Counted from the stretch's first letter, positions 3,302 through 33,710 are shown. The stretch: DNA of 64,000 bases from Clostridia bacterium (GCA_017399185.1 JAFQEA010000016.1:21264-85263); one strand, 5' to 3'. Made by a program: numbers and translations. Notes: generated from the sequence alone by a model not told the origin.

Positions 3302-3340
3302 AGTGCTTTGCGAGATTTTGTCGCAAAGCCTTTTTTAATG
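3302..3340 (+). terminator. terminator hairpin after the GH2 gene
   Basis: gctttgcga-gatttt-gtcgcaaagc followed by TTTTTT. Confidence 0.55.
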
Positions 3341-3413
3341 AATAATGAATAATGAATAATGAAGAATTGTGGTAAACTTTTTGCCTTTGGCAAAAAGTCT
3401 TAAGTAAATTTAA
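3337..3413. repeat. BOX-like modular intergenic repeat, in inverted orientation ((gaataat)n module plus palindromic core ggtaaactttttgcctttggcaaaaagt)
   Basis: This is the reverse complement of the unit tttaaattt(g/a)ataaagactttttgccaaaggcaaaaagtttaccacaatt(cttcatt)n, which is seen at about 8 other loci. Confidence 0.7.
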
Positions 3414-3631
3414 AAAAAACTTTGGGTAAGTGTTGTTAAAAACGTTGTCACCATAGGGTGAGACGTTTCGGCAAAAAGTTTGCCATAACCTTCAACTCAC
3501 TACTCTTTACTTTTCACTAAAAAAAGAACGTTTTCGGGGCAAAAGAATAAATTATAGCAGAAAGTCTACACAAGCTAATCAAAAAGCAAGGGTTTTTGCC
3601 CTTGCTTTTTTCGTTATAAATCGTTTTTTTG

Positions 3632-3660
3632 TTGACGTTTTGGCTTAATTGCAGTATAAT
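3632..3660 (+). promoter_or_regulatory. sigma-A type promoter (TTGACG, 17 bp spacer, TATAAT) for the AbrB-like/ABC operon
   Basis: Exact -10 TATAAT at 3655-3660 and -35 TTGACG at 3632-3637, with a 17-nt spacer, about 45 nt upstream of the ATG at 3707. Confidence 0.55.
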
Positions 3661-3706
3661 AAGTATGAAAAGTATAACAAAACCCACTAAAAATAAGGAG
3701 CTTATT

Positions 3707-3898
3707 ATGGAAAAGAATAAATATATTGGCGTTTGCAAGGTTGGCGAAAAGGGTCAAATTGTAATTCCGAAGGAAGCAAGGCAGATGTTCGACATAAACC
3801 CAGGTGATTCGGTTTTGGTTTTATGTGACAAAAAAAGGGGCATAGCAATAATTAAAGCCGATATGGTTGAAGAATTAACCGACAAAATTTTAGGTTAA
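3707..3898 (+). CDS. AbrB/MazE/SpoVT-family DNA-binding protein
   Basis: 64 aa; IGVCKVGEKGQIVIPKEARQMFDINPGDSVLV is a swapped-hairpin AbrB-type domain. RBS AAGGAG lies 6 nt upstream of the ATG. Confidence 0.6.
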   Translation: MEKNKYIGVCKVGEKGQIVIPKEARQMFDINPGDSVLVLCDKKRGIAIIKADMVEELTDKILG

Positions 3899-3910
3899 AG
3901 GGGTAAAGTT

Positions 3911-4630
3911 TTGAGCATAATCACGATAGACAATCTTAAAAAGTATTACAAAAAAACCCACGCCTTAAGGGGTGTGAGCTTTAGTGTTGATAAGGGTGAG
4001 CTTTTTGGGCTGTTAGGCGTAAACGGCGCGGGTAAAACAACGCTTATTAAAATTTTGTGCGGGCTTACCCAAAAAAGTGGGGGTACGGCTATTGTTGACG
4101 GGCTTTCATTGGACACCCAAATTGACAGCATTAAGCAAATCATTGATTTTTCGCCCCAGGAAAGCGCAGTTGCCTTAAATCTCACCGTAAAGGAAAATTT
4201 AGACTTTTTTGCAAGTATTTACGGCAAAAGTAACCAAGAAGATATACAAGAAATTGTTGATATCTTTAAATTAAACGATTTATTAAACCAAAAAGCCAAA
4301 ACCCTGTCTGGCGGGTATAAAAGAAGGCTTTCCATTGCGATTGCGCTTATATCAAAGCCCAAGATTCTGTTTTTAGACGAGCCTACCTTGGGGCTTGACG
4401 TTTTGGCGCGCCGTGAGCTTTGGCGGATAATAACCGACTTAAAGGGCAAAATCACGATAATACTTACGTCACATTACCTTGAAGAAATCGAGCATTTATG
4501 TGACCGCGTTGCAATTTTATCAAAAGGGGCGCTCGTTGGCGTTGGCACGGTTGATTACTTTAAGCAGTTAACCCAAAGTAAAAGCTTTGAAGACGCTTTC
4601 GTTGCGCTTTTAGGTGATAATTATGGCTAA
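3911..4630 (+). CDS. ABC transporter ATP-binding protein
   Basis: Walker A GVNGAGKTT, signature LSGGYKRRL and Walker B ILFLDEPT. TTG start with a GGGG RBS. Confidence 0.85.
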   Translation: MSIITIDNLKKYYKKTHALRGVSFSVDKGELFGLLGVNGAGKTTLIKILCGLTQKSGGTAIVDGLSLDTQIDSIKQIIDFSPQESAVALNLTVKENLDFFASIYGKSNQEDIQEIVDIFKLNDLLNQKAKTLSGGYKRRLSIAIALISKPKILFLDEPTLGLDVLARRELWRIITDLKGKITIILTSHYLEEIEHLCDRVAILSKGALVGVGTVDYFKQLTQSKSFEDAFVALLGDNYG

Positions 4631-5405
4631 AACAATCAATTTTTGCAAGCGCAACCTGAAAGAGCTGTTGCGCGACCCCTTGCTATACGTTTTTTGCTTG
4701 GGCTTCCCGATAGTAATGCTTGCGCTGTTTCAGATTATCAATAATTACACAAACGGCAGTACGCCCGTTTTTGAGCTTAAATCGCTATTGCCCGGGATAA
4801 TAATGTTTTCTTACACCTTTGCAATGCTGCTTATGGCGCTTATCGTGTCAAAGGACAGACAAACCTTTTTCTTAAAAAGGCTGTACTCGTCCCCCATGCG
4901 CGCTAAAGACTTTGTTTTAGGCTACGCTATAGTAGGTCTTATTATCGGGGTATGCCAGAGTATAGTTTGTATTTTGGCAGGTGGCGTTGTTGCGCTTATT
5001 ACAAAGCAAGTCTTTGTGGGCTTTGGCAGGGTTTTATTGCTGTTTGTAAGCCAAATGCCAATACTTGTGTTTTTTGTTTTTGCCGGTATCTTAATCGGTA
5101 CGGCGTTTAACGATAAGGCTGCACCGGGGATATGCTCAATATTGATTTCGGTTGCGGGCGTTCTTGGGGGCTGCTGGATGCCACTTGATATGATGGGTGG
5201 CTTTGAAACTATCTGCCGCGTAATCCCGTTTTATCCGTCAGTTTATATTGGAAGGGTAGTTTGTGGGGCAAAAAACGCGTTAGGTGCAGTTTTTATATTT
5301 GACAAAGTGGCTTATCTTGGTCTTTTGGTTATTGGTATATATACCGTTATAAGCGTTTTGTCGGCATTTTTATTATTTGAAAAGAATATGGTTAGTGATA
5401 ACTGA
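4623..5405 (+). CDS. ABC-2 type transporter permease
   Basis: About 260 aa polytopic membrane protein, translationally coupled to the upstream ABC ATPase. Confidence 0.6.
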   Translation: MAKTINFCKRNLKELLRDPLLYVFCLGFPIVMLALFQIINNYTNGSTPVFELKSLLPGIIMFSYTFAMLLMALIVSKDRQTFFLKRLYSSPMRAKDFVLGYAIVGLIIGVCQSIVCILAGGVVALITKQVFVGFGRVLLLFVSQMPILVFFVFAGILIGTAFNDKAAPGICSILISVAGVLGGCWMPLDMMGGFETICRVIPFYPSVYIGRVVCGAKNALGAVFIFDKVAYLGLLVIGIYTVISVLSAFLLFEKNMVSDN

Positions 5406-5474
5406 CAAAAAAGCTTGGGTAGCCCCAAGCTTTTTTAGTGATAACTGACAAAAAAGCTTGGGGCTACCCAAGCT
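5393..5474 (+). repeat. tandem direct duplication of gene end plus terminator (tagtgataactgacaaaaaagcttggg[tagc/gcta]cccaagctttttt, twice)
   Basis: An approximately 41-bp unit containing a palindromic terminator hairpin is repeated twice immediately after the permease stop. Confidence 0.7.
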
Positions 5475-5802
5475 TTTTTTAGTGAAGAATCAAGAATTAA
5501 AATTTTGGTAAACTTTTTGCATAAAAAAAACAAATGACAGTTCACATATAACGCAAACTGCCACCTGTCTTGAAAAATATATGATAAGGGGGAAAATGAT
5601 GAGCTAATTAATTGTCAGCCCTAAATAAGGGACTTAACGTGTGATATATTACACAATTAAAAAAAGTTTGTAAAGTTTTTTAACCCCATTTTTACGCTTT
5701 TTTTAAAAATTTCTAAAAATTTACAAAAAAAGTTAGCAAAAAAATGGTTCAAAACAAATTAAAAACAGGCAATTTGATAAAAAACTGCCTGTTTTTGTAT
5801 TA

Positions 5803-6228
5803 TTAAATTCTATTAAACTTTTTAAGGATATAAAAACGCGCCTTTTCGACCACGGCTGAAAACGTTGTCGTTTTATCGCAAAAGGCTTTAACCTTGTCAA
5901 AGCAGTCTTGCATACGACTATCAAGGTTTTGCTCACCAACGTATAAAAAGTCAACGTAGCACCTGTGTGCAAGCCAGTTACGCATGCTTTTAATGTCGCG
6001 CAAAAGGTTAAAGTCGCTTTTGTCAAAAATCGGCGGGTCAATATCCTTTTGTAAATCCTTAAGCCCGTTAATGCAGTCGGCAAGGGTAATATCGGCAGCG
6101 GCGGCAAGATTATTTTTAAAATCGCCTTGCTGCATTGCGGCGTAAATAATCTTTACGTCGTGCTCAATGCGTTGGCAGTTTAATAAGCTTTGCCCTACGT
6201 ACCAGTTGTAATCGTTTAAATTTGCCAT
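5803..6228 (-). CDS. hypothetical protein, possible HEPN-like domain (R-x4-H motif RNWLAH)
   Basis: 141 aa. It contains SMRNWLAHRCY, which fits the HEPN Rx4-6H signature. No other recognisable family. Confidence 0.3.
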   Translation of the reverse strand: MANLNDYNWYVGQSLLNCQRIEHDVKIIYAAMQQGDFKNNLAAAADITLADCINGLKDLQKDIDPPIFDKSDFNLLRDIKSMRNWLAHRCYVDFLYVGEQNLDSRMQDCFDKVKAFCDKTTTFSAVVEKARFYILKKFNRI

Positions 6229-6349
6229 ATAAATATGTTAAAACACAAACAAAAATTTGTCAAGACTTTAAAGTAAAATTTTTTGTACCCATTACTAAAA
6301 GTGGGGCTATAGGGCGGTTAATTGATAAAAAAGTTGGTGTGTTGGTATG

Positions 6350-6690
6350 GCTAACAAGTTGTTTCAAACGCTCGCTTAGGGCGAGACGTTGTAAAAAACG
6401 TTGTTAGCTAATTCAAAAACGTTGTCATCCTGAGGCTTTGCCGTAGGCAAACGCCGTCAGGACCCCCTTGAGTTTCAAGATAACTTAAGTAAAACGTTGT
6501 TAATAAATTTGTTAGTATTTACAATCCTTCAGTCTTTGACTTCGTCAAATCCAGCTCCCTTTACACAAGGGAGCCTTTTTAAATTTATAAAGACTTTTTG
6601 CAAAGCAAAAAGTTTACCGCAATTATTCATAAGCGGGGGCGGACGCCTGCGCGACTTCATTATTAATTCTTCATTAAAAAAAGCACGCGG
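6350..6690. repeat. composite BOX-like intergenic repeat cluster (modules E/C, D, A, B)
   Basis: Contains three copies of aaaacgttgt, gtcatcctgagg…cgtcaggacccccttgagtttcaagataacttaagtaaaacgttg, ttgttagtatttacaatccttcagtctttgacttcgtcaa…gctccctttacacaagggagc, and gactttttgcaaagcaaaaagtttaccgcaatt. All of these recur elsewhere in the window. Confidence 0.7.
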
Positions 6691-6697
6691 TTTAGCG
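6668..6697 (-). terminator. terminator of ispDF (bidirectional hairpin)
   Basis: aaaaagcacgc-ggtttag-cgtgcttttt. Confidence 0.5.
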
Positions 6698-6707
6698 TGC
6701 TTTTTGT

Positions 6708-7823
6708 TTATCTTGCTTTTTCAACCAAGCAGTAGACCCTGCAGGCAATGCCTTCTTCACGGCCGACAATCCCTAGGCCTTCTAACGTGGTGCAGGTTAT
6801 GCCGATGTGCGCTAGATTTGTGTGTAAAACATAGGCGATATTTTGCTTCATTTGATCAACGTAAGGTGATAGCTTTGGTCTTTCAGCCATAATGCAAATT
6901 GATGCGTTAATCAACCTATAGCCCTGTTTTTTGATAAGTTCATACACGTTATTAAGTAAAACAAGGCTTGAAATATCCTTATATTTTTGGTCGGTATCAG
7001 GGAAGTAATAGCCAATATCCTTTAGCCCACAAGCAGAAAGAATAGAATCCATAAGTGCGTGGATAACGGCATCAGCGTCGCTATGGCCTAAAAGCCCTTT
7101 ATTATGTGGGATTTCAACCCCGCCAAGCACTAATTTGCGCCCTTCAACAAGCTTATGCAAATCAAAGCCCGTGCCAACGCGTGTTGAAGGCTTAAAATCT
7201 TCAGGGTACGTCAGCTTTACGTTTTCGCGTTCACCTTCAACAAAGCTGCAAGGACCTATATATCTGCAATAAATACCGCAATCGTCTGTAAAGCCTTGCT
7301 CGTCTTTAGCCAAGGTGTGTGCTTTAAAAATCTGGTCGTATTTAAAAGCCTGCGGTGTTTGTAAGCTTAAAAAATCAGCGCGGGTTGTATAGCTGATTTG
7401 TCCGTTTTCAACCCTGCCGATGGTGTCGCCAAGCGGTGTTGTCGGCACGCAAGAATTATCGTTAATCGCCTTATACAGGCACTTTTTTATGAGTTCCGGT
7501 GTAACAAAGGGTCTTGCGCCGTCGTGGATTAAAACGTAATCGCACCTGCAAGATAAAAGCGCGTTATAAACAGATTCCTGCCGCGTTTTACCGCCGGCGA
7601 CAATTTCCACCTTGTCTTCAAACCTTTTAAACAGGTCTTGAAAGATATAAAAATCCGCAAAGTTTGCCGTTATAAGAATTTTATCAATTTCGGGCACGGC
7701 TAAAAAGCTTTGGACGGTGCGTTCTATCACGCTAAAATCGTCGTCAAGCCTTGCGAAAATCTTATTGTAATTAAATTTTGCGCGGGTGCCGCTTCCTGCC
7801 GCGGTAATAATTGCAACGTTCAT
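6708..7823 (-). CDS. ispDF: bifunctional 2-C-methyl-D-erythritol 4-phosphate cytidylyltransferase / 2-C-methyl-D-erythritol 2,4-cyclodiphosphate synthase
   Basis: N-terminus MNVAIITAAGSGTR (IspD). C-terminus GTGFDLHKLVEGRKLVLGGVEIPH…GHSDADAVIHAL (IspF). Confidence 0.85.
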   Translation of the reverse strand: MNVAIITAAGSGTRAKFNYNKIFARLDDDFSVIERTVQSFLAVPEIDKILITANFADFYIFQDLFKRFEDKVEIVAGGKTRQESVYNALLSCRCDYVLIHDGARPFVTPELIKKCLYKAINDNSCVPTTPLGDTIGRVENGQISYTTRADFLSLQTPQAFKYDQIFKAHTLAKDEQGFTDDCGIYCRYIGPCSFVEGERENVKLTYPEDFKPSTRVGTGFDLHKLVEGRKLVLGGVEIPHNKGLLGHSDADAVIHALMDSILSACGLKDIGYYFPDTDQKYKDISSLVLLNNVYELIKKQGYRLINASICIMAERPKLSPYVDQMKQNIAYVLHTNLAHIGITCTTLEGLGIVGREEGIACRVYCLVEKAR

Positions 7824-7850
7824 AAGTCCCTACAAAAAAACAAGTTTCAA

Positions 7851-12507: not shown

Positions 12508-12525
12508 TTTATAGGGAGGTAGAAT

Positions 12526-20847: not shown

Positions 20848-20882
20848 AAAAGCTTTGCGGGACGCCGCAAAGCTTTTTTTTA
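20848..20882 (+). terminator. terminator after tuf
   Basis: aaaaaagctttgcgg-gac-gccgcaaagctttttttt. Confidence 0.6.
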
Positions 20883-20955
20883 ATGAAAAATGAAGAATGA
20901 AGAATGAAGAATTATTGTCAGTTGTCCGCTCCGCGGCAACCCCTGAATATTATTG
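20881..20955. repeat. BOX-like repeat fragment ((gaagaat)n module plus divergent tail)
   Basis: aatgaaaaatgaagaatgaagaatgaagaatt… is the same heptamer array as at 3337, 27263, 31160 and 33672. Confidence 0.6.
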
Positions 20956-21002
20956 AAAAGGTTGTTATTTTGTGATATAATTAACTTAAGGTGGGTAGTA
21001 TT

Positions 21003-21353
21003 ATGAAAGAAAACGCTTTAATTGAAAAGTCATTAAATTTTGCAACACGTATTGTTAAATTGTATCAATATCTAACAAAAACAAAAAAAGAAACTATACT
21101 ATCAAAACAAGTTTTGCGTAGTGGAACGTCAATCGGCGCAAATATAAACGAAGCAAACTTTGGGCAAAGCCGAGCAGATTTTATTGCAAAAATGCACATT
21201 GCTTTAAAAGAAGCTGTTGAAACTATATATTGGTTAAAAGTACTAACCACGTCTGAATACATAAACGAAAAACTCGGTCTTTCACTTTTAAATGATTGTA
21301 TCGAATTAAAAAAATTGTTAGTTTCAACAATAAATACCACTAAAGAAAACTAA
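21003..21353 (+). CDS. four-helix-bundle protein (23S rRNA intervening-sequence protein family)
   Basis: MKENALIEKSLNFATRIVKLYQYL…SIGANINEANFGQSRADFIAKMHIALKEAVETIYWL is typical of the TIGR02436-like four-helix-bundle family. AAGGTGGG RBS. Confidence 0.55.
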   Translation: MKENALIEKSLNFATRIVKLYQYLTKTKKETILSKQVLRSGTSIGANINEANFGQSRADFIAKMHIALKEAVETIYWLKVLTTSEYINEKLGLSLLNDCIELKKLLVSTINTTKEN

Positions 21354-21413
21354 AATCACCACTCTTAATAACTTATATTAAAAAAGGCTTTGCGTGCAAC
21401 GCACACAAGGCCT

Positions 21414-21530
21414 TATTTAAATTTGATAAAGACTTTTTGCCAAAGGCAAAAAGTTTACCACAATTCTTAATTCTTAATTCTTAATTCTACCAACCGCAAA
21501 GCGGTTGTAGCGTCAGGACCCCCTTGAATG
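21414..21530. repeat. BOX-like modular repeat (A core, (cttaatt)4 module, C module ccaaccgcaaagcggttgtagcgtcaggacccccttga)
   Basis: Follows the terminator hairpin of the four-helix-bundle gene. The same modules occur at 27222, 30975, 31107 and 33461. Confidence 0.7.
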
Positions 21531-23544: not shown

Positions 23545-23761
23545 TCCCCCCAATTCATAAAAATCTAAATTTTTATAAAATTTAACGGATTGTAACAACA
23601 CCTATGGTGTTTAAACAAACAACTCATAAGGCGACGGATTTATCCGCCGCCTTATTTATATAATAAGGTTGCAAAAACTTAAATCTTATGATATAATGCA
23701 AAAAAACGTAATACTATGTTCAAGCGTGGATATTTTTATTTTATAAGCGGAGATAGACTAT

Positions 23762-26026
23762 ATGGAAAAACCAAAGAAAAAGCTTGCCTTAAAAAACGCA
23801 CCTTTTATAGTGGCATTAATTGTACTAATATTTGTAGGGATACTATCTTTTATTTTTTCTAATAAGTTTTTCGTTGAGGAGTATGATAATAATCATAGAG
23901 ACCTTATTGGTATACTTTGTCAAATTATTATTTCAGTTGCTTGTTGTATAGTCTCGGTGATTAGCATTTCTATATCGCTTCAAAACGAAAAAATATATGG
24001 CATTACAAGAAGAGATTTTGAAAAATTGCGTACCGGCATGCGTTTTTCGATATTATGCATTATACTTGTTGCTCTTTCATTATCTGTAATTAGTGTTATC
24101 GCATATACTTTTGAAATATATTTTACGTGCTTATATTGCTTGACACTGCTTATCGCTTTTTGTTTTATAATTTGTATTAGTGAAGTGCCAATAATGTGTC
24201 ATAACGATAATACTATACTGCGCATTATCATGAAAAGGCTAAAAATAGTAATAATGACAGGTGTTGTTATTCCGTCAGACTTAAAAACGGTTGTTATTAA
24301 TCTTATTACTGAAAAGCACACTATTAAGGAACTATACAATAAATACAAAGACAGTAAAAATAAAGAATATAACAAAAGCTTACTTATAAAGCTTATAGAA
24401 ATACACTGCGACTACGCTTCCAATTTAGCTAAGTTGGATGCAAATATTAGAGATAAAAGGGCGGATCGCGTAGTCAAAAACATCAAAGATATACTTTCTT
24501 TTAATAAAGATTTTGATATAATACAACTCACTGATAAAGAAATATGGAACTATCAACACTTAATTACAAGAGTATTGTTTAGTACATCTAAAATTGTATC
24601 GACGCATACTAAAACGATACACTTAATTTTTGATTCACTACCATTTATTGATCATTATGAAAATGTTGAGCATAAGCGTTTTATAATGTCAATAGCTATA
24701 AAATTGATTTCAGCTACTTTAACATCGGGTGATTTAAGCTTTGCATACGAATTAAAACGTGTTTGCTCGCAGTGGAAATATAGTTTTAATGATGGAGGTG
24801 CACTAACTACCATATTTGCGCTAACTAGCATACATTTAGAATATTTACATAATTCAGCACGCTATGTAACTCAAAAATATAAGGTACGGATAAGAAAGTT
24901 TATCAAAGATAATCCGGTAATCGAGAGCCAAAAAACATTATCTTGGGCTACGCTTTACTCTATATTTTTACAGAAATTTACTTTAAATGTGGAAGAATTT
25001 CTATATTTTTACAAGCTTAATGAGCATAATTGGGATATGAATATATATGACTCTGACGCTCATTTTGTAATTATGGATGATAAGCATGGGGTTATGTGGC
25101 TTTTAGCAAACCTTTTCTCTACGTATACCGTATGGACTTACGATTACAACAAGCTACTGTCAATAAATCCAGCGTTTCATGAAACTCTATTATATGTGGG
25201 CGATCAAATATTAGAGGATCGGTCTACAATAGAATATATGCAAAAATTGGTGACGTTCTTTGTTAAAGGTGAAAAAATTGATTTTTATAATATTAGCGAG
25301 AAAAAAAGTCAAAGATTTGAAACTTTTATTAGAGAACTACATAAAAAGAAAATTGATAAATTGGTTGCTGAAACAGAATTAATAGATACAGATGAGCTTG
25401 CAAAAATGTATGAAGTAGCTGTTGTTGGTACTGTAAGTAAAGAGTGGGGGTACACTGGAGGTTTTGATTTAAGCGAAGTTGCACCTAATGTTTTAAAGAT
25501 GATGATAGAGGTCAATAGTACTGCTATAAATTATGTTGACTTTATAATCAAACATATAAGCAAACAAGTAATATTAAAAATTAAAAGTGATATTCACAAA
25601 GAATTGGCTTCACCGTCAACGTTTGAAGAATCTATCAAAGAAGCAGAATCGTTGTATGTCTCGAATATAGCAAAGCAAAATGTTGAACAAATATTAACAA
25701 AAAATGCTTTATCAGACAAGGTTGCAATCGAGTCATTTGAGAGTACGATATTAGATGGTTATTGTGTATTGGTCAATAAAGCATTGGAATTTGGTTGTGA
25801 TATAAAAATAGAAATCGAAAAATTAACAAAACGGCAAATTGCAGAAAAGGCTGAAGAATATAAAGCTAAAGATGGCCGTTATATATATGAAGGTGCTATT
25901 TTATCTCGCGAGGAACTTGAAAGTATAGTACAAAAACAATATGCATTTTTGGTGTTACAACTAAAATACAAAGTGAATAAAGAGGACATAACCGTTTATA
26001 AAATTAATTATTTAGACTTAGATTAA
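23762..26026 (+). CDS. hypothetical membrane-anchored protein (about 4-5 N-terminal TM helices plus an approximately 570-aa soluble domain), encoded in a conspicuously AT-rich island
   Basis: 754 aa with no recognisable motif. Local GC is clearly lower than in flanking DNA. Confidence 0.45.
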   Translation: MEKPKKKLALKNAPFIVALIVLIFVGILSFIFSNKFFVEEYDNNHRDLIGILCQIIISVACCIVSVISISISLQNEKIYGITRRDFEKLRTGMRFSILCIILVALSLSVISVIAYTFEIYFTCLYCLTLLIAFCFIICISEVPIMCHNDNTILRIIMKRLKIVIMTGVVIPSDLKTVVINLITEKHTIKELYNKYKDSKNKEYNKSLLIKLIEIHCDYASNLAKLDANIRDKRADRVVKNIKDILSFNKDFDIIQLTDKEIWNYQHLITRVLFSTSKIVSTHTKTIHLIFDSLPFIDHYENVEHKRFIMSIAIKLISATLTSGDLSFAYELKRVCSQWKYSFNDGGALTTIFALTSIHLEYLHNSARYVTQKYKVRIRKFIKDNPVIESQKTLSWATLYSIFLQKFTLNVEEFLYFYKLNEHNWDMNIYDSDAHFVIMDDKHGVMWLLANLFSTYTVWTYDYNKLLSINPAFHETLLYVGDQILEDRSTIEYMQKLVTFFVKGEKIDFYNISEKKSQRFETFIRELHKKKIDKLVAETELIDTDELAKMYEVAVVGTVSKEWGYTGGFDLSEVAPNVLKMMIEVNSTAINYVDFIIKHISKQVILKIKSDIHKELASPSTFEESIKEAESLYVSNIAKQNVEQILTKNALSDKVAIESFESTILDGYCVLVNKALEFGCDIKIEIEKLTKRQIAEKAEEYKAKDGRYIYEGAILSREELESIVQKQYAFLVLQLKYKVNKEDITVYKINYLDLD

Positions 26027-26174
26027 AAAGGACGGCAAACGAGCCAAGAAACCTTGCTAGAATGCGTAAATTTTACGTAACCTATGGCGATTTAGCAAAT
26101 TTGCCACCAGCAGTGGCAAATTTGCCTTGGACACAAAATTTTATACTTATAGAGAAAGTAAAAGATATTAATTC

Positions 26175-26216
26175 AAAAAAGCAGTTGTCATTAATTTGCG
26201 GACAACTGCTTTTTTA
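26175..26216. terminator. bidirectional terminator between the convergent 754-aa gene and fic
   Basis: aaaaaagcagttgtc-attaatttgc-ggacaactgctttttt. Confidence 0.55.
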
Positions 26217-27104
26217 TCAGTATTCAATCTTAAAATAATCCAGCCAGAGCTTAAACTGGTCCTGACAGGACAAGCAGGTGTCGGTCAAGTAACCTTTTTG
26301 CCTGTCCCATTCCTTAAGAGCGCGGTAATAAAACATTTTGTGGGCTTCGTCAATGATAAAGGGCACAACGTTATTTGCCAAACATTCCTTAAACATTAAA
26401 AGCCTGCCAACGCGCCCGTTTCCGTCCTGAAAGGGGTGGATAGCTTCAAAACGCGTATGGAAAGCCAAAATTTGCTCAAAGCCCTTTACGTCAAGGCTGT
26501 TATACCACTCAAGCAGGCTGTTGATTTCTTCCTTAACCATTTCAGGGGGGCAGGTTTCAACGCCACCGACTTCGTTTGGTATTTTCTTGTAATCGCCAAC
26601 GTTAAACCAGGACTTTCGGCTATCGCTCGTTCCGCTTTTAAGGATAAGGTGCAGGGCTTTAATCATTGCCGGGGTGACGGGCTTTAAGGCGTTGTCAATA
26701 ATATAGTCAACGCACTTAAAATGGTTTGCGGTTTCAATAACGTCGTCAACGTTTACTGCCGATTCAATGCCAATCGTGTTGGTTTCAAAAATATATCGCG
26801 TTTGGTCGTGCGACAGGGTGCTGCCTTCAATGTGGTTGGAGCTATACGTAAGCTCAATCTGTATTTTATGGTATATCCCACCTTTAAGCTTTAATTCCTT
26901 TTGCTCCTTTAATGCGGTTAACAGCTTGCTTGCGCCTGGGGGGCTGAAGCTTTCACGCGCGGGCTTTAAGGCGTCTTCAGGCAGGTTCCAGGTCTTGCCG
27001 GTTAAAAACGCACCGGGCACGCGCCCTTGCGCACAATAGCTGCGCACCATTCTTTCGCTTACGTTCCATTTTTTTGCAATTTCACTAACCGAAACAAATC
27101 GCAT
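26217..27104 (-). CDS. Fic/DOC family protein with N-terminal HTH
   Basis: Fic motif HPFQDGNGRVGR. N-terminus MRFVSVSEIAKKWNVSERMVRSYC is an HTH. Confidence 0.8.
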   Translation of the reverse strand: MRFVSVSEIAKKWNVSERMVRSYCAQGRVPGAFLTGKTWNLPEDALKPARESFSPPGASKLLTALKEQKELKLKGGIYHKIQIELTYSSNHIEGSTLSHDQTRYIFETNTIGIESAVNVDDVIETANHFKCVDYIIDNALKPVTPAMIKALHLILKSGTSDSRKSWFNVGDYKKIPNEVGGVETCPPEMVKEEINSLLEWYNSLDVKGFEQILAFHTRFEAIHPFQDGNGRVGRLLMFKECLANNVVPFIIDEAHKMFYYRALKEWDRQKGYLTDTCLSCQDQFKLWLDYFKIEY

Positions 27105-27145
27105 TTATTCACCCCTTAAGTTTGTTTATTATAATAATTATATTC

Positions 27146-27199: not shown

Positions 27200-27221
27200 G
27201 TTTTGGTTGTCCTTTTTTATT

Positions 27222-27476
27222 TATTGAAGACTTTTTGCCAAGGGCAAAAAGTTTACCACAATTCTTCATTCTTCATTCTTCATTCTTCATTCCACAACCG
27301 CAAAGCGGTTGTGCCGTTACAATCCTTCAGTCTTTGACTTCGTCAAAGCCAGCTCCCTTTACACAAGGGAGCCTTTTTTAATTTATTAAAGACTTTTTGC
27401 AAGGCAAAAAGTTTACCACAATTCTTCATTCTTCATTCTTCATTCTTCATTTGCAAGGCAAAGCCTTGCTTTTTTC
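27222..27476. repeat. BOX-like composite repeat: A-B-C-D-A-B modules followed by a terminator hairpin
   Basis: Two copies of gactttttgc(c)aa(g)ggcaaaaagtttaccacaatt(cttcatt)4 separated by caaccgcaaagcggttg and the ttacaatccttcagtctttgacttcgtcaaagccagctccctttacacaagggagcc module. Confidence 0.75.
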
Positions 27477-27605: not shown

Positions 27606-30600
27606 ATGGCTATGGCTAAAAAAGGATTGTTAACCGTTTTATTTGCGGCGCTTTTTGCCGTGTGCGGCGTTTTGGGCGTGTGGCAAGCTAAACCCCAAGC
27701 GGCTTATGCTCAAGACACAGCGCCAAAGGTTGTGTATGCCATAACTGACAGTATCGGAGATAACGCGTATAACAGCTTTTTGCAGGAATACTTAAATAGC
27801 GGCAACTTTACCGTTAATAATAAGGTTACGCTTAATGGTATGCGCGCGGAAGAATTAAGATATCTTGTTGACAGAACCTATAACGGCGATAATTACACGG
27901 CGGAAAATTTCCCCGCGCTTGTTACCTACCGCGAAAATACAGAGCTTGACGTGATGACTGCTGACCAGATTATTTTGTCGGTCGGCAGTGCCAACTTTGG
28001 CTCACAAACGGTGTCAACGCTCTGCAGGGTTATTGAAGATAAGTTTGGCGTTACGCTTGGCGATACAACAGACTACGGCTTTGACGTTTCAACCCTGTTA
28101 ACCGAAGAAACGCAAGGTTTATACGACACTATTTTTGAAACGCTTGAAAAGGCGCTAAATGCCGGCGGTAAGCTTTCAAGTAACGCGCTTGTGGAGCTTT
28201 TCGGTGCGGAAAACACCAAAAAGGTTGTTAATGCTTACGCTTACGGCTTTTTAGGGTTTATGACACACTACGTTAAGGCCGTTGAAGGTATCCACGCGAT
28301 TAATCCTGCGGCAACAATCGTTGTGGTGGGGCTTTATAACACCCTTGACGGGCTTAAGTTTGAGTTTGAAGGCTCTACCGTTGACGTTGGCACTATCGCC
28401 GGGCTGTTGTTCGACGGCGCTAATATGATGCTTGCTTCAAAAATAAATAATATAGACGACGTTTATTTTGCATATCCCGGCAAGGCTGGGCTTATGCTTG
28501 AAGATATCGCTGCGGGTAGGCTTGACGATAATTTTGAGTACGACAGCCATATCCGTAACCTTATGTTTAACCATTCGTTAGACGACCAAAACGAGCAATT
28601 AGTGGATGCGTTCAAAGCAGCTTTCAGGGCGGCGGCGGTTAACCCGTCTGTCAATATGGCAGGGGTTATGGACCTTTTTGAACGCGCTGACGGCACAACC
28701 AAAACGCTTACAGAAGTCCTTTCAGAAAACGTAGGCAATCTTTTAGATGGCGGTATGCAGGATTTGTTAACGCTTAATATTAGGATGAGTCTTGGCGGCG
28801 GCGTTGGCGCAAACCTGTCAGACAATAGCGCAACAAAGGTTGCCGGTAAGATTGAAAGCGCTATAAAGGATTGCTATGACGGTGGCGATTATCTTACCGA
28901 AGCCGTTCAAACACTTAACCGCGATTTTGATAATTACGCCACGGCACTTTTGAAAAGCGGTATGCTGGGCGCTGTTAAGGAACTGACTGACAACGTTTAC
29001 TTTAACCGCCTTATTGACGCGCTTCTTGAAGCTCAAGACTTTGACGCGACACACAGCGCGCTTATGGAAGGCGCACAAAGCGGTGAATACACCGTTACGG
29101 GCAGCTCAAAATACGTTGCGCTTGGCGATGCGCAGCATATGGATAAAAATTCGGCAACAAATCTTTTTGCGGCAGAGATTTTCGGCGCGGAAGCGGCAAG
29201 CCGTTACATAAACCTTTCCACGCAGGGCATGCGCGTTGAAGATTTATTGTATCTTTTAGACGGGACTTTAGTGCCCGACGATTATTTTAATTCACGCTTT
29301 AATGTGGTAAGCGATTACGACAAGTACGTCGGCGCGCTTGAAGGTGCGGACCTTATTAGCTTGTCGTTCGGCGGTGAAGGGGTTTACAGGTTTGTTTTAG
29401 AGCAGATTTTTCGCGCAATGGACGGCAAACCCGCGCTCGCGGTTAACTGGGAGCAGTTCGTTGAGCCTGACGTTGCCGAAAAAATCGACGGCTTAAAGAC
29501 CAAGCTTAAACAAATGATGAACCTGCCCGAAACGATTGACATTGCTGAAATTTTAAATGGCTTGAATGACGGCGTTATCGACGTGGAGCTCGTTTTTGAC
29601 ACCGTTCTGCACGCTTACCTTGGGCATTTGACAAGCTATGCTAAAGCCGTGGAAGCTATCCACGCTTTAAACCCGTCTGCTCAAATCGTTCTGTTTGGTT
29701 ACTTTAACCCCATGCAGGGGCTTGTGATGCCTGTCGATGGTAAGAATATACCGATGGGTGAGTTTGTTGATATTTTCTTAAAGGTTTGTTCAATGCACGC
29801 GCTGACCTTTACGGCAACGGCGGGTGATTACGTGACTTATATCGACCTTGTGGGTGTGGTGACTTCTGCTATTAACGAAGAATGGCCCGAAGACAACGAA
29901 ACGCCAACGCCTGTTATCGCCGATTATTTGATGAACTTTATCACCGAAAACGGCAGCGACCTTTTGTTGACGGCTGACGGGCAGGCTGTGGTTAAAAATA
30001 AGCTTACGGATAGCTTTAAAGTAAGCTGCGCGCACATTTTTGATAACGCGTGTGATAGCGAGTGTAACGCTTGCGGTGCGGTGCGTGAAGTCCCTGACCA
30101 CGTTTACGATAACGCGTGCGACCCGTCTTGCAACGTTTGCGGTGCTAAAAGGTCTGTTGGTGAGCACCAATACTTAAACTGCAAGGCGCAGCTTTGCAGT
30201 ATTTGCGGCGGCGGGAAAAGGGCTTCTGCGGATTGCCAATACTCAAACGCTTGCGATAAGGATTGTAACGTTTGCGGGTTTGTGCGCGAAGTTCCCGACC
30301 ACGTTTACGACCATGCGTGCGATAAAGATTGTAACGTTTGCGGCGAAGTGCGTGAAGTTCCCGACCACGTTTACGATAACGCTTGCGACAGCGAGTGTAA
30401 CGTAAAGGGCTGTGGGTTTGTACGCGAGGTTGCCGACCACGTTTACGATACGGCTTGTGACGCTTACTGCAATGAGTGCAATTTTGCGCGCACGCCGGCT
30501 AACCACGTTTACGATAATAACTGCGCTGACACCACCTGCAACGTTTGCGGCGGGTTCAGACAGTATGCCGACCACGTTTACGATAACGCGTGTGACGCTA

Positions 30601-30929
30601 CCTGCAACAACTGCGCGGTTACGCGTGAGGTCAGCGGTCACGTTTACGATAACGATTGCGATTCGTCCTGTAACGAGTGTGGCGAGCAGCGTACTATCGC
30701 CGGCCACGTTTACGATAACAAGTGCGACAATACCTGCAACGTTTGCGGCACAACCCGTAACGTCGGCGCGCACGTTTATGACGACGGCAAAGACCCAACC
30801 TGCAACGAATGTGGCTTAACGCGTGACGTTGGCGGCGGTGGATGCTTCGGCTACGTTGACAGCGTGTTTGCTGTGTTAGGTGTTGCTGCGCTCGGCTTGG
30901 TTAAAGCAATCACTAAAAGAAAAGAATAA
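27606..30929 (+). CDS. large secreted protein: signal peptide, tandemly duplicated N-terminal domain (possibly SGNH-like), about 12 tandem 26-aa Cys/His repeats (HVYDNACDxxCNVCGxxRxV), and a C-terminal GGGG-hydrophobic-KRKE tail
   Basis: 1107 aa. Internal duplication, for example FMTHYVKAVEGIHAINPAATIVVVG versus LTSYAKAVEAIHALNPSAQIVLFG. The repeats are visible at DNA level as an approximately 78-bp tandem array. Confidence 0.6.
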   Translation: MAMAKKGLLTVLFAALFAVCGVLGVWQAKPQAAYAQDTAPKVVYAITDSIGDNAYNSFLQEYLNSGNFTVNNKVTLNGMRAEELRYLVDRTYNGDNYTAENFPALVTYRENTELDVMTADQIILSVGSANFGSQTVSTLCRVIEDKFGVTLGDTTDYGFDVSTLLTEETQGLYDTIFETLEKALNAGGKLSSNALVELFGAENTKKVVNAYAYGFLGFMTHYVKAVEGIHAINPAATIVVVGLYNTLDGLKFEFEGSTVDVGTIAGLLFDGANMMLASKINNIDDVYFAYPGKAGLMLEDIAAGRLDDNFEYDSHIRNLMFNHSLDDQNEQLVDAFKAAFRAAAVNPSVNMAGVMDLFERADGTTKTLTEVLSENVGNLLDGGMQDLLTLNIRMSLGGGVGANLSDNSATKVAGKIESAIKDCYDGGDYLTEAVQTLNRDFDNYATALLKSGMLGAVKELTDNVYFNRLIDALLEAQDFDATHSALMEGAQSGEYTVTGSSKYVALGDAQHMDKNSATNLFAAEIFGAEAASRYINLSTQGMRVEDLLYLLDGTLVPDDYFNSRFNVVSDYDKYVGALEGADLISLSFGGEGVYRFVLEQIFRAMDGKPALAVNWEQFVEPDVAEKIDGLKTKLKQMMNLPETIDIAEILNGLNDGVIDVELVFDTVLHAYLGHLTSYAKAVEAIHALNPSAQIVLFGYFNPMQGLVMPVDGKNIPMGEFVDIFLKVCSMHALTFTATAGDYVTYIDLVGVVTSAINEEWPEDNETPTPVIADYLMNFITENGSDLLLTADGQAVVKNKLTDSFKVSCAHIFDNACDSECNACGAVREVPDHVYDNACDPSCNVCGAKRSVGEHQYLNCKAQLCSICGGGKRASADCQYSNACDKDCNVCGFVREVPDHVYDHACDKDCNVCGEVREVPDHVYDNACDSECNVKGCGFVREVADHVYDTACDAYCNECNFARTPANHVYDNNCADTTCNVCGGFRQYADHVYDNACDATCNNCAVTREVSGHVYDNDCDSSCNECGEQRTIAGHVYDNKCDNTCNVCGTTRNVGAHVYDDGKDPTCNECGLTRDVGGGGCFGYVDSVFAVLGVAALGLVKAITKRKE

Positions 30930-30974
30930 TAAGTTTTGTAAATAAAAGGCTTTGCGGCATTAGCCGCAAGGCCT

Positions 30975-31232
30975 TATTTTAATTTGATAAAGACTTTTTG
31001 CCAAAGGCAAAAAGTTTACACCGTGCTATGCACGGATGTTTAATGAATAGTGAATAATGAATAGTGAATAATTCAGGTCAGTTTGCTTGGCAAAGCCAAG
31101 CAAAGCCTTATTTAAATTTAATAAAGACTTTTTGCCAAAGGCAAAAAGTTTACCACAATTATTCATCAGGCGTAGCCGACTTCATTATTCATTCTTCATT
31201 CTTCATTCTACCAACCGCAAAGCGGTTGGGGC
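30975..31232. repeat. BOX-like composite repeat (A, inverted B', A, B, partial C)
   Basis: Same modules as at 27222 and 33374. Includes the small palindrome ccgtgctatgcacgg, which recurs as ccgtgcgtatgcacgg at 33404. Confidence 0.7.
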
Positions 31233-31253
31233 GACAGGTCTGCTGTCAGCCTA

Positions 31254-31290
31254 TAAAAAAAGCAGGGGATACCCCTGCTTTTTTGTTTTT
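31254..31290 (-). terminator. terminator of the flotillin gene
   Basis: aaaaaaagcagggg-atac-ccctgctttttt. Confidence 0.55.
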
Positions 31291-31298
31291 CCTGCCGA

Positions 31299-32702
31299 TT
31301 ATTCTGCAGGTTTGTCTTCTTCAGCTTTCTTTGGTGCAACGATGCTTGGCATTTCTAACCCGGCTGACTTAAACACGTCGTTAAGCGGTGGGAGCGCACC
31401 CATCATGCCCGAAATAAAGTTTGCGGTTGACGTTTTGCCGTTTTCGTTTGCGCCGCTGTCCCAAACGGTTACCTTGTCAATCTTGATGTTCTTGATTGCT
31501 TCAACCTGGGTTTCGATAATCTTTTCAATCTTGTCGGCAATCATAAGGCGTGTTGCTTCGTTGGTGTCGCCACCGGCAGCCTTAACAACTTCCTTTAAGC
31601 CTTCTGCCTGCGCGGTTAAAACTTCGCGTACACCCTTTGCTTGGGCTTCCATCTTGGCAAAGATAGCGTCGGCTTCACCCTTTGCGCGGCGGCGGATTTG
31701 TTCTGCTTCTGCTTCGGCTTGAAGCTCAAGTTCTTGCTTGTGGATTTGCGCTTTTACAAGTACGTCGGCTTCCTGGGTGGATTTTTCCCTTAAGCCACGC
31801 GCGTCTTCTGCAGTCTTTTCTGCGGCGTACGCGTCTTCCAAAGCCTTTGCGCTGTTGATTTTTTCAGCTGAAACTGCGCGCTGTTCGGCTTCTGCCTGGC
31901 GTTGGCGGAGCTCTGAAATAGAGTTTGCAATGGCCGCTTTTGCTTCGTTTTCGCCTTGGATTGCTTTTGCATCGGCTTCGGCAACGGAGATACGTTGCTC
32001 TCTTCTTGCGTTGGCTTCACCGATAGCACCGTTTCTGTCGGCTTCGGCAACGGAAATTTTAGCGTCGTTTATTGCTTTTGCAGCGGCTTCCTTACCGAGC
32101 GCCACAATGTATCCCGATTCGTCGGAAATATCTGTTACGTTTACGTTGATTAGCCTTAAACCAATCTTTTTAAGTTCGCCTTCAACGTTTAAGCTTACTG
32201 CGTCCAAAAACTTGTCACGGTTGGTGTTGATTTCTTCAATGTCCATGGTCGCGATAACAAGACGGAGCTGACCAAAAATAATGTCCTTTGCAAGCTCTTG
32301 TATCTGATTTAATTTTAAACCAAGCAAACGTTCTGCCGCGTTTTGCATGATGCCCGGCTCTGTTGAAATACCTACCGTGAAAATCGACGGTACGTCAATA
32401 CGGATGTTCTGGCGGGAAAGCGCGCTCTTTAAGTCAACCGCGATTGAAATCGGCGTTAAGTCCATAAATTGGTAGGCCTGGAATAGCGGAACTATGAAGC
32501 TTACGCCGCCGTGCAAGCATTTTGCAGAGCGGTGCTGGTCGCCTTTGCCGGACGAAACCTTACCGTAAACGACCATGATTTTATCTGAAGGGCACTTCTT
32601 AAAGCGTGTTGCAATCAATAATAAAATCATTACAAGTATTAATGGGATAACCACAAGTAAGGTTACTAACCCGTCTTGGTTTATCAATAGGTTGTTTAAC
32701 AT
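31299..32702 (-). CDS. floT: flotillin-like SPFH/band-7 protein (FloT/YuaG-like)
   Basis: N-terminal TM, SPFH domain, then a long Ala/Glu-rich coiled coil (AEAEQRAVSAEK…ELQAEAEAEQIRRRA). Paired with an upstream NfeD gene. Confidence 0.8.
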   Translation of the reverse strand: MLNNLLINQDGLVTLLVVIPLILVMILLLIATRFKKCPSDKIMVVYGKVSSGKGDQHRSAKCLHGGVSFIVPLFQAYQFMDLTPISIAVDLKSALSRQNIRIDVPSIFTVGISTEPGIMQNAAERLLGLKLNQIQELAKDIIFGQLRLVIATMDIEEINTNRDKFLDAVSLNVEGELKKIGLRLINVNVTDISDESGYIVALGKEAAAKAINDAKISVAEADRNGAIGEANARREQRISVAEADAKAIQGENEAKAAIANSISELRQRQAEAEQRAVSAEKINSAKALEDAYAAEKTAEDARGLREKSTQEADVLVKAQIHKQELELQAEAEAEQIRRRAKGEADAIFAKMEAQAKGVREVLTAQAEGLKEVVKAAGGDTNEATRLMIADKIEKIIETQVEAIKNIKIDKVTVWDSGANENGKTSTANFISGMMGALPPLNDVFKSAGLEMPSIVAPKKAEEDKPAE

Positions 32703-32730
32703 TTTTTATACTCCTTATAAAGTTTTTTGT

Positions 32731-32758
32731 GTTAATCGGCTTATAGACCGACTTTTAT
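32731..32758. repeat. short dispersed motif taatcgGCTTATAGaCCgactttt (family of at least 6 copies)
   Basis: Palindromic core ggCTTATAGcc. Other copies at 33726-33750, 37925-37950, 42338-42367 and 43446-43470 (inverted), plus a weaker one at 40649-40673. Confidence 0.55.
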
Positions 32759-33360
32759 ATTGATTCAACGACTAAAACGTCGTCTTCAACGTCAACAATT
32801 TTAACCTTTGCACCCGTTTTTATAGGTGTTGCGGACAGGGTTTTTGCAGAAAGCTCTCTTAAAGATTCGTTCAGTATAACCGTGATTTTGCCGCTTCCTT
32901 GACCGTTTGCTGGGATTGTAAGATAAACGTCCGCAGTTTTACCAACGGCTGCTTTATATGATATATTGCCGCTTGACTGTAAGCCTAAAAGCCATTTAAG
33001 TAAAAACGCCATACCAACTAGCGCCGCCACACCGCATACAATCGATAAAATAACCGCTAAAGTCGGGTTGCTGTCGCCAAACGTAAAGCCAACCCAGCCG
33101 CCAACCGTTAAAAAGGCGATAAGCCCGCGCACGGTAAAAAGGCGGAAACCCGGGTCGCCGTCAAACACGTCGTTTACGTCGGTGTCAACGTCGGTATCAA
33201 CGTCAACGTCAACGTCCACATCCACGTCGCCGTCAAAATCGGCTTCCCCGCCGGAAAAACCAATTATCATAAGTATGATTTGAACTATAAGTAAAACCGT
33301 TGCAGGCGTTGCTATGCAAAAATAGATTTTTTGCATTAAGTTAAGTGCTTGCCACCACAT
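32755..33360 (-). CDS. NfeD-family membrane protein (YuaF-like), flotillin partner
   Basis: Two TM segments plus a C-terminal OB-like domain (GKITVILNE…AKVKIVDVEDDVLVV). Its position immediately upstream of floT matches the known nfeD-floT operon. Confidence 0.65.
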   Translation of the reverse strand: MWWQALNLMQKIYFCIATPATVLLIVQIILMIIGFSGGEADFDGDVDVDVDVDVDTDVDTDVNDVFDGDPGFRLFTVRGLIAFLTVGGWVGFTFGDSNPTLAVILSIVCGVAALVGMAFLLKWLLGLQSSGNISYKAAVGKTADVYLTIPANGQGSGKITVILNESLRELSAKTLSATPIKTGAKVKIVDVEDDVLVVESI

Positions 33361-33373
33361 AATTTCACCCCCA

Positions 33374-33710
33374 ATAGATAATAATGAATAGTAAATAGTG
33401 TCCGTGCGTATGCACGGCGTGAATAATCTCTTGCGCTCGCGCAAGTATTGTTGTTAGCTTATTCAAAGACGTTGTCATCCTGAGCCCAACCGCAAAGCGG
33501 TTGTGGCGTCAGGACCCCCTTGAGTTTCAAGATAACTTAAGTAAAACGTTGATAATATATTTGTTAGTATTTACAATCCTTCAGTCTTTGACTTCGTCAA
33601 ATCCAGCTCCCTTTACACAAGGGAGCCTTTTTTAATTTATTAAAGACTTTTTGCCAAGGGCAAAAAGTTTACCACAATTCTTCATTCTTCATTCTTCATT
33701 CTACATTCTT
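33374..33710. repeat. BOX-like composite repeat (inverted B', E/C, D, A, B modules)
   Basis: gttgtcatcctgagcccaaccgcaaagcggttgtggcgtcaggacccccttgagtttcaagataacttaagtaaaacgttg…gctccctttacacaagggagc…gactttttgccaagggcaaaaagtttaccacaatt(cttcatt)n. Confidence 0.75.

Follow-up and report, generated by a model that had tools for sequence, protein, structure and literature searches.

Repeat modules between the genes of the window

A 64,000-nt stretch of DNA from a Clostridia bacterium (GCA_017399185.1, JAFQEA010000016.1:21264-85263), called the window below, contains the rpoB-rpoC-rpsL-rpsG-fusA-tuf genes at about 41% G+C, and a tRNA scan found no tRNA gene in it. Gaps between its genes carry a family of hairpin-rich repeats, divided by an earlier note into five modules, A to E, and this repeat family is the subject of the present work. 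All eight loci listed in that note do carry modules of the sequences given there. Copy counts refer to the window unless another source is named. The core of module A, ACTTTTTGC-N2-7-GCAAAAAGT, occurs in 8 copies against 0.00 expected (100 shuffles), starting at 3376, 6593, 21432, 27230, 27392, 30993, 31127, and 33646 and all lying between 3376 and 33668, with a half copy at 5506-5520. Searches by blastn-short with the modules placed A at 8 loci plus one half copy, B, an array of heptamers, at seven, C at five, D at three, and E at two, with an additional degenerate copy at 3440-3470, and a de novo repeat search of the window recovered the same repeat families. The suggestion that modules occupy nearly every intergenic region is too strong, because a rough census finds them in 8-9 of about 16 intergenic gaps between 1 and 34 kb and in none of about 17 gaps between 34 and 64 kb. 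Their reported placement after terminator hairpins holds, since the repeats mostly adjoin terminators.

The modules had been described as varying in order and orientation. When all copies are read in the direction of the A core, a constant order emerges: TTACCACAATT and then the B array invariably come after A, and at the two loci where E, C, and D co-occur (6362-6676 and 33450-33714) the order is E, hairpin, C, D, A, B. The arrays regarded as inverted B are the left arms of the same element that carries A and B at its right. Moreover, versions that bear a gene between the same ends and hairpins occur in related strains and once in the window, so the modules are not independent boxes. The picture of a modular, lineage-specific, intergenic family without a known RNA family thus stands, but that of freely shuffling, BOX-like boxes does not. 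We regard it as probable, if well short of certain, that the modules are the ends, internal hairpins, and gene-less remnants of two kinds of small single-gene cassette, here called Type I and Type II, and this judgement covers the whole explanation, inferred movement included. The window holds one intact cassette, one complete gene-less element, and many solo ends (Table 1).

Type I cassettes and their exchangeable genes

A Type I cassette lies between two arrays of 7-nt repeats in inverted orientation, of which the left one reads (AATGAAG)n and the right one (CTTCATT)n. The left end (LE) consists of a T-run, (AATGAAG)n, AATTATTGTCAGTT (GTCAGTT), and a variable hairpin, and then ends in ..CCT. 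The right end (RE), which corresponds to modules A and B, consists of a hairpin with a T-run abutting AAATTTAATAAAG (A-left), the A palindrome ACTTTTTGCC..GGCAAAAAGT, TTACCACAATT, and (CTTCATT)2-6; in most copies the A-run and reverse-strand terminator of a convergent gene follow directly, and the RE lies between that A-run and the T-run of the preceding hairpin. In gene-bearing copies a sigma-70-like promoter leader is added between the LE and the cargo gene, whereas an LE joined directly to an RE makes a complete gene-less element of about 150-175 nt (window 31036-31210 and comparison loci L006 and L012). An alignment of these copies (A2) shows the gene-bearing and gene-less versions to be collinear as far as the end of the GTCAGTT hairpin, heptamer array included; immediately after CCT they part, one kind continuing into the promoter leader and the other into A-left. 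Folded as single-stranded DNA, the arms of the gene-less element are predicted to pair and to enclose two hairpins (z = -7.6 for window 31036-31210, and also -5.1). The ends are not uniform in sequence: the LE linker hairpin, set between GTCAGTT and CCT, which are conserved, takes six unrelated, perfectly paired forms, compensated changes occur at the tip of the A core (GTGC/GCAC vs GCC/GGC), and the number and type of heptamers differ between orthologous REs of close strains.

The intact cassette of the window (20881-21487) comprises an LE, a gene for a four-helix-bundle (4HB) protein, and an RE. Its LE (20881-20944) directly follows the T-run of the tuf terminator, and its leader carries a strong promoter-like site, TTGAAA-17-TATAAT with TG. 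The tuf-downstream site varies among strains with an identical EF-Tu protein, the comparison sequences, here and below, all being drawn from metagenome assemblies. At this site the same leader is followed in L049 by a 4HB gene whose product is 69% identical to that of the window; L047 carries DUF559 (PF04480) plus Fic, and L048 a Type II cassette with a GIY-YIG gene. By inspection of alignment A2, the leader of about 85 nt reads identically before the 4HB gene of L049 and the DUF559 gene of L047. Type I cargo is therefore interchangeable behind a shared leader, being either a PF05635 4HB gene (Avd-like) or a gene of the DUF559 endonuclease fold. In L022, from a strain 99.9% identical over 20 kb, the 116-nt unit made of cargo terminator and RE is tandemly duplicated.

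As predicted, further 4HB variants carry the same ends. In L072 (91% amino acid identity) the LE leader precedes the gene, and the terminator and RE follow it. In L071 (86%) an RE likewise follows, and the heptamer array before the gene is of a variant kind, (AATGCGG)n. Both have GTGC/GCAC in place of GCC/GGC at the tip of the A palindrome, a change that affects its two arms alike. More distant Clostridia 4HB genes (72-75% identity; L061 and L068) have inverted heptamer arrays just upstream of their promoters. PF05635 proteins resemble Avd, the accessory protein of diversity-generating retroelements (PMC10053308), and one may speculate that the PF05635 protein binds the heptamer arrays. PADLOC gave no match for the 4HB or GIY-YIG proteins.

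Downstream of the tuf site lies an island of low G+C content (21682-27104; 30-35% G+C), which encodes proteins of 620 and 754 aa without a Pfam, NCBIfam, or PADLOC match, as well as a Fic protein matching PDC-S04, a candidate family of defence proteins (E = 6e-109). At the position of this island, L047 carries DUF559 and a different, 348-aa Fic gene.

Type II cassettes and their GIY-YIG gene

Type II cassettes are bounded by inverted repeats of about 60-100 nt, which correspond to modules E and C. Each repeat holds a long stem-loop made of GTCATCCTGAG, a variable perfect hairpin, and CGTCAGGAYCCCC, here called the E-hairpin-C unit. The termini are CAG...CTG, the outer ones reading CAGGATAGATTGGGGGATCCTGACG...CGTCAGGACCCCCTAATCTATCCTG, and the cargo is a 93-aa GIY-YIG protein (PF01541, E = 4e-17, domain at residues 4-76). 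Inverted E-hairpin-C units flank GIY-YIG genes in L002, L036, L038, and L048. In L002, from a metagenome-assembled genome (MAG) of a sister species, the 93-aa gene lies between inverted copies at a site that is empty in the window, and a tblastn search of the window found no GIY-YIG gene. On the right side of the cassette the end unit is tandemly repeated, and the last part of module C (..ATAACTTAAGTAAAACGTTG) is similar to the sequence that closes the GIY-YIG gene (..CTCACTTAAGTAAAGCGTTG); thus, the units at 6362-6499 and 33450-33551 are solo end units of the internal type. The latter is a segment of about 117 nt bounded by GTTAGCTTAT and GTTAGTATT, and strains L035-L038 lack it at this site. 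Of a Type II outer terminus, the window keeps the last few bases at 31230-31252.

Turnover between strains is also seen at the intergenic site between the flotillin gene and the gene for an 1107-aa protein (30930-31298). The window has A and B elements there, L035-L038 have an intact GIY-YIG cassette, and L039 has only a solo inverted repeat, the flotillin proteins being 99% identical across these strains. The GIY-YIG cassette occurs at three different sites in all, among them the tuf site of L048, whose copy is 91% identical in DNA, over 584 nt including gaps, to that at one of the other two.

Parts of the two cassette types also meet. A heptamer array is joined directly to the CCAACCGCAAAGCGGTTG hairpin with an identical junction at 21487/21490, 27292/27294, and 31209/31211; either the RE inserts at the base of the inner hairpin of the E-hairpin-C unit, or RE and hairpin spread as one unit. 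Module D is preceded by a promoter-like TTGTTA/TTGATA-17-TACAAT (6497-6526 and 33549-33577) and continues with two hairpins and a T-run, an arrangement that could yield an RNA of about 55 nt. An independent small RNA gene was rejected as the principal interpretation of module D, the promoter-like part not being conserved in the variant of L035-38.

Perfect pairing of the variable hairpins

The outer stem of the E-hairpin-C unit is invariant (TCCTGAG/..GTCAGGA, with a one-base bulge). The inner hairpin has 10 different sequences among 25 copies, all of them perfectly paired. In the alignment of these hairpins (A3), all 135 of 135 cells form standard pairs, 7 of the 16 pairs are changed on both sides, and there are 18 double-sided changes with neither a one-sided change nor a G-U pair; none of 500 shuffles or slid registers comes close to this pairing. 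Folds of the module composites give z scores from -4.7 to -7.6. The earlier proposal that the elements encode structured RNAs is weakened by these data, as the compensatory changes all run from Watson-Crick to Watson-Crick pairs and copies stand in either orientation to their neighbours. The elements may act as terminators or insulators. Because G-U intermediates are lacking and both orientations occur, the E-hairpin-C hairpin is more likely kept as a palindrome at the level of DNA than as an RNA helix. The palindrome might be a recognition target in hairpin or cruciform form, or its perfection might be maintained by template switching.

A separate structure lies at 5405-5480, where a terminator hairpin is duplicated in tandem over 43 nt with its loop flipped (cttgggtagccccaag vs cttggggctacccaag). 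The two copies are direct repeats and also form a perfect 30-nt inverted repeat, which looks like the footprint of hairpin inversion or of a template switch.

Distribution across strains, species, and phyla

Proteins identical to those of the window come from gut- or rumen-type metagenome assemblies and from MAGs labelled 'Clostridia bacterium'. The nearest genome in a collection with one genome per species is the Christensenellaceae MAG JAZTYT01; the organism therefore belongs to the Christensenellales. This sister species carries 14 A cores on 12 contigs, so the family is neither confined to the stretch of about 34 kb where it was noticed nor a product of local duplication. Coding DNA of the two species is only 75-82% identical, the repeats 80-95%. 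Nine of the 12 contigs match the window only at repeats, and many matches lie at contig ends, as expected of repeats that break assemblies. After one orthologous gene the sister species has an RE-bearing composite with no counterpart in the window, and two sites occupied in the sister species are empty in the window. Some copies have stayed in place. The RE at 3337..3424, which begins right after the terminator T-run of an upstream GH2-like gene, has an orthologous copy in the sister-species MAG (L001), and the junction of truncated RE and CCGTGC hairpin at 30975..31035 is also found there (L014). Among strains the repeats are polymorphic in presence and absence, which makes the earlier idea that they may be mobile a reasonable one; a strain comparison around 5803-6228 showed no variation.

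As DNA, the family appears narrow, since searches of the flotillin regions (13-21 kb) in species with 84-87% identical flotillin turned up neither A nor B nor E-hairpin-C signatures. Scans for the A core gave, besides JAZTYT01, only single chance-like matches in unrelated taxa among other genome contigs and only seven chance-like single matches among metagenome contigs; viral contigs had none for either the A core or the E-hairpin-C unit, and blastn of two composite loci against plasmids and phages found nothing meaningful. The plasmid and phage collections thus lend no support to a phage or plasmid origin, nor do they contain an annotated insertion sequence (IS) end that matches. A scan against Rfam 15 gave no match at gathering score and none at E <= 5 centred on a module; the only matches that reach a repeat locus, STnc430 (31155-31291) and sX6 (31238-31519), fall far below their gathering thresholds. 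A literature search for GIY-YIG, DUF559, or PF05635 in connection with intergenic repeats or miniature inverted-repeat transposable elements (MITEs), or for the motif string, found nothing on bacteria.

The end motif of the GIY-YIG cassette is much broader in distribution than the DNA family. A Bacteroidota MAG (L059) has a 93-aa GIY-YIG gene between 56-nt inverted arms with GT(A/C)ATCCCGAGCG..CCGAGGGATCTCC. Four or more gene neighbourhoods in L054-L058 (JGI metagenomes) share one identical 101-aa GIY-YIG gene. The conserved element around it carries GTCATCCTGAGCGttaGCGAAGGATCCCC, has GTCATCCTGAGCG..GCGAAGGATCC upstream of the gene, and ends at a sharp right boundary (...cgcacaaaacagga). These copies suggest that cassettes of the GIY-YIG type are active in another phylum. 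Thousands of relatives exist for both cargo families, most of them on contigs shorter than 2 kb.

Proposed movement of the cassettes

Sequence comparison establishes the two architectures, the exchange of cargo behind a shared leader, the recurrence of one cassette at several sites, the gene-less and solo derivatives, and fast turnover among close strains; the mode of cassette movement is inferred. Recombinational copying is favoured, because no gene of transposase type is linked to the copies and no regular target-site duplication has been seen with them. In this model, cassettes would spread and be swapped through recombinational copying between sites marked by the repeats, with breaks at hairpin or cruciform ends supplied by the encoded GIY-YIG or DUF559 nucleases or by an enzyme acting in trans, and positions just past terminators would serve as harmless landing sites. 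Under the cassette explanation as a whole, deletion of the cargo leaves gene-less, MITE-like LE-RE elements, one-sided loss leaves the many solo REs and solo E-hairpin-C units, and nesting together with recombination between copies builds the mosaic.

Several observations weigh against this explanation. No copy has a linked gene for a transposase, an integrase, or a RAYT, the transposase type associated with repetitive extragenic palindromes (REPs), and the three cargo families include no known transposase. Window copies show no consistent target-site duplication, being flanked mostly by a T-run and an A-run, and the sole clear flanking direct repeat, of 11 nt, is found in L061 and L068, which are probably orthologous. 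In this species, 4HB or DUF559 cargo has been seen only at the tuf-downstream site. In addition, the replacement of alleles at the tuf and flotillin sites could reflect homologous recombination through conserved flanks, with no activity encoded by the element; such ordinary exchange could account for part of the polymorphism but not for the same cassette at three sites. A further concern is that metagenome assemblies, the source of all comparison DNA, are prone to error at repeats, which is countered by the recovery of the same alleles in independent samples, spanning both flanking genes.

The direct repeat just mentioned is the only signature resembling a target-site duplication that was seen. 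Downstream of a tRNA gene in L061 (1000-1090) and L068 (1010-1100), a segment of (ATTCATT)n is flanked by the 11-nt repeat (GCGGAKTTTT), which copies the 3' arm and T-run of the terminator, and this segment stands directly before the inverted array and 4HB gene.

Alternative readings and known systems

A bolder reading takes the LE/RE and E-hairpin-C elements together as an undescribed class of mobile mini-cassettes that lack a classical transposase and target hairpins next to terminators, each with one small gene (Avd-like 4HB, DUF559, or stand-alone GIY-YIG) enclosed by inverted, structured ends, and with the GIY-YIG branch ancient and spread across phyla. The last point would follow from the motif GTCATCCYGAGC...GGATCYCC, which also occurs near GIY-YIG genes elsewhere, flanking small ones in L059 and lying just upstream of the gene in L054-58. 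If true, this reading would account for the thousands of PF05635 and small GIY-YIG genes that lie on tiny, repeat-broken contigs, and we hold it to be possible but doubtful.

An origin as classical MITEs is unlikely. On that account the repeats are non-autonomous derivatives, formed by deletion and mobilised in trans by a canonical transposase encoded elsewhere, and the small genes are passengers. Like MITEs, they are small (150-200 nt), non-coding, multi-copy, and intergenic, have inverted repeats at their ends, and occur alongside longer elements with a gene between those same ends. The heptamer arms of 31036-31210 and of L006 are terminal inverted repeats that pair in the DNA fold, the E-hairpin-C arms are inverted as well, and the gene-less elements fold back on themselves. 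The CAG...CTG termini of Type II, the 11-nt direct repeat of L061 and L068, and the breaking of MAG contigs at repeats would also fit. However, the genes of the strain loci covering window 2-43 kb include no transposase-family Pfam match, and all gene-bearing partners with the same ends carry PF05635 4HB, DUF559, or GIY-YIG genes rather than an autonomous transposase. Unlike those of MITEs, the arms consist of tandem 7-nt arrays that vary in length or of long repeats with hairpins, no regular target-site duplication was seen, and solo ends outnumber complete elements.

Less probable again is that the repeats are host-domesticated palindromes, comparable to the REPs and bacterial interspersed mosaic elements (BIMEs) of enterobacteria and pseudomonads, which serve termination, insulation, or protection of mRNA 3' ends and were spread by a RAYT-type enzyme or by recombination. 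The resemblance is real in that mosaics of imperfect 20-40 nt extragenic palindromes and linker motifs, variable in copy number, are found here too, typically just downstream of genes or terminators. The reverse strand of the A core is terminator-like (hairpin and CTTTATTAAA), module D ends in a canonical hairpin with a T-run, and some copies are kept at orthologous positions across species (L001). Nevertheless, the units have no GTAG-type REP head (the A core starts with GACTTTTTGC and E with GTCATCCTGAG), no gene for RAYT, a Y1 transposase, was found in the annotated strain loci, there is no sequence similarity to REPs or BIMEs, and the units here are demonstrably the ends of gene cassettes. 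Furthermore, the copies at 27213-27476 lie between divergent promoters and not after a gene, and the gain and loss of sites between near-identical strains argues against a required host function.

The least probable alternative is that the repeats act as small structured or cis-regulatory RNAs, for example an RNA of about 55 nt from D or ORF-enclosing stems like those of 23S rRNA intervening sequences: the promoter-like TTGATA-17-TACAAT before D and TTGCCA-16-CACAAT inside the RE, the strong folds with significant covariation, and inverted arms around PF05635 ORFs that recall the stems of rRNA intervening sequences, as these are generally known, would suit it, but the modules match no Rfam family, the double-sided changes suit palindromes in DNA better than helices in RNA, the D variant of L035-38 does not conserve the promoter, and copies occur in both orientations.

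Other known systems share single traits with the cassettes preferred here. Like pneumococcal BOX (boxA-boxBn-boxC) and RUP elements, the repeats are modular and lineage-restricted, with variable numbers of internal units and stable predicted hairpins, and, as for BOX, no mobilising enzyme is known. They appear to differ from BOX and RUP in sequence, as the earlier note had it, and their variable unit is 7 nt instead of a 45-nt box. BOX is not known to have coding partners.

Free-standing GIY-YIG homing endonuclease genes and the PF05635 intervening sequences of 23S rRNA are likewise small, selfish-looking genes, present or absent at a fixed site, with the GIY-YIG or PF05635 ORF enclosed by inverted repeats. 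The GIY-YIG protein here has the catalytic domain, and one and the same site has filled, solo-repeat, and replaced alleles. At 93 aa, it consists of the catalytic domain only, without the C-terminal DNA-binding domain of homing endonucleases, and its sites lie between genes and near terminators rather than within genes or rRNA.

Class C group II introns and REP-targeting IS elements insert at or near terminator-like or REP hairpins, which serve as safe havens. The likeness to them is one of target choice only, itself an interpretation here, and unlike group II introns the cassettes have no reverse transcriptase or ribozyme. Integron cassettes with attC sites also differ, as the cassettes here are dispersed singly among core genes (tuf, flotillin), have their own promoter leader, and have no integrase nearby. 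In sum, the family works like the mosaic repeats of the MITE, BIME, and BOX kinds yet lacks what defines each of them, because it has no transposase partner, no GTAG head or RAYT, and no known sequence homology.

Among the small multi-copy genes of bacteria that lack an explanation, those for small 4HB proteins (annotated as '23S rRNA IVS protein'), DUF559 proteins, and stand-alone GIY-YIG proteins are some of the most frequent, and mosaic repeats of the BOX or BIME kind have long been without a clear origin. In this lineage, such repeats are probably the ends and remnants of cassettes that carry those very genes. The cassettes offer substrates for tests of nuclease action on structured DNA ends, of Avd-like binding to 7-nt arrays, and of cassette movement. 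In practical terms, the repeats break metagenome assemblies and mark strain-variable sites, of which the tuf-downstream site is a hot spot.

Table 1. Cassettes, ends, and remnants in the window, by position
Feature	Position	Strand	Details
Solo RE	3337..3424	-	array 3337-3367, A core 3376-3398, AT-rich A-left 3399-3424
Degenerate E-like motif	3436..3510	+	aaaacgttgtcacc...gggtgagacgtt, then decayed half A core and B-like tail
Truncated RE	5483..5523	-	few heptamers and half A core GGTAAACTTTTTGC
Solo internal-type end unit of GIY-YIG cassette	6362..6499	+	E leader CTTAGGGCGAGACGTTG...GTTAGCTAATTCAAAAACGTTGTCATCCTGAG, stem-loop 6424-6470, C tail
Module D	6500..6580	+	GTTAGTATTTACAATCCTTCAGTC, small hairpin, then GCTCCCTT/AAGGGAGC hairpin with T-run (terminator-like)
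RE with GC-rich hairpin nested in heptamer array	6576..6676	+	A core 6593-6613
LE and cargo leader	20881..20990	+	inverted array 20881-20912, AATTATTGTCAGTT and variable hairpin 20913-20944
Promoter leader TGAATATTATTGAAAAGGTTGTTATTTTGTGATATAAT	20945-20990	+	only in gene-bearing copies
Cargo gene	21003..21353	+	116-aa four-helix-bundle protein (PF05635 / TIGR02436, Avd-like)
Cargo terminator and RE	21381..21487	+	hairpin 21381-21414, RE 21414-21487, A core 21432-21454, three CTTAATT heptamers
Half E-hairpin-C unit	21490..21530	+	CCAACCGCAAAGCGGTTG hairpin and GCGTCAGGACCCCC, joined directly to B array
Composite between divergent promoters	27213..27476	+	RE 27213-27292, CAACCGC hairpin, 5'-truncated D 27317-27379, second RE 27373-27451, then GCAAGGC hairpin and T-run
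Truncated RE	30975..31035	+	A-left and A core only, joined to CCGTGC hairpin
Complete gene-less MITE-like element	31036..31210	+	inverted array, GTCAGTT and linker hairpin, A-left, A core 31127-31149
GIY-YIG cassette right-terminus remnant	31211..31252	+	hairpin and ...TCTGCTG, then tcagcc
LE-like remnant	33373..33449	+	AATAGAT/AATGAAT heptamers, broken by two small hairpins (CCGTGC..GCACGG, CTTGCGC..GCGCAAG)
Solo E-hairpin-C unit	33450..33551	+	stem-loop 33474-33520
Module D, then RE	33562..33714	+	D 33562-33633, RE 33628-33714, A core 33646-33668

Among the ends listed, the RE at 6576..6676 stops at the A-run of the ispDF terminator, that at 33628-33714 stops at the A-run of a hairpin of the S type described below, and the right array of 31036-31210 contains a small nested hairpin.

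Other repeats and neighbouring genes

A second repeat family, with the motif (AAAAGTS)GGSCTATAAGYCGATTA and here called S, is spread more evenly, with 15 copies in the window against 0.16 expected. Copies lie at 699, 1508, 2746, 6304, 6908, 32733, 33727, 37926, 39991, 40648, 42340, and 43440, with weaker ones at 4431, 35845, and 41406, often within a longer hairpin such as AAAAAGTAG...CTACTTTTT. The motif is also present in the sister MAG and in a species with 87% identical flotillin. A role as a promoter or SigD site was rejected, as copies also occur antisense inside coding regions and at 3' ends; because of the antisense copies within genes, the motif looks REP-like rather than like a promoter.

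The gene next to the flotillin site (27606-30929) encodes the 1107-aa protein, which has no Pfam match. Its 3' part (30027-30815) consists of Cys-rich tandem repeats of 66 nt (22 aa), and the assembly of one strain has it split into two called ORFs (834 and 277 aa).

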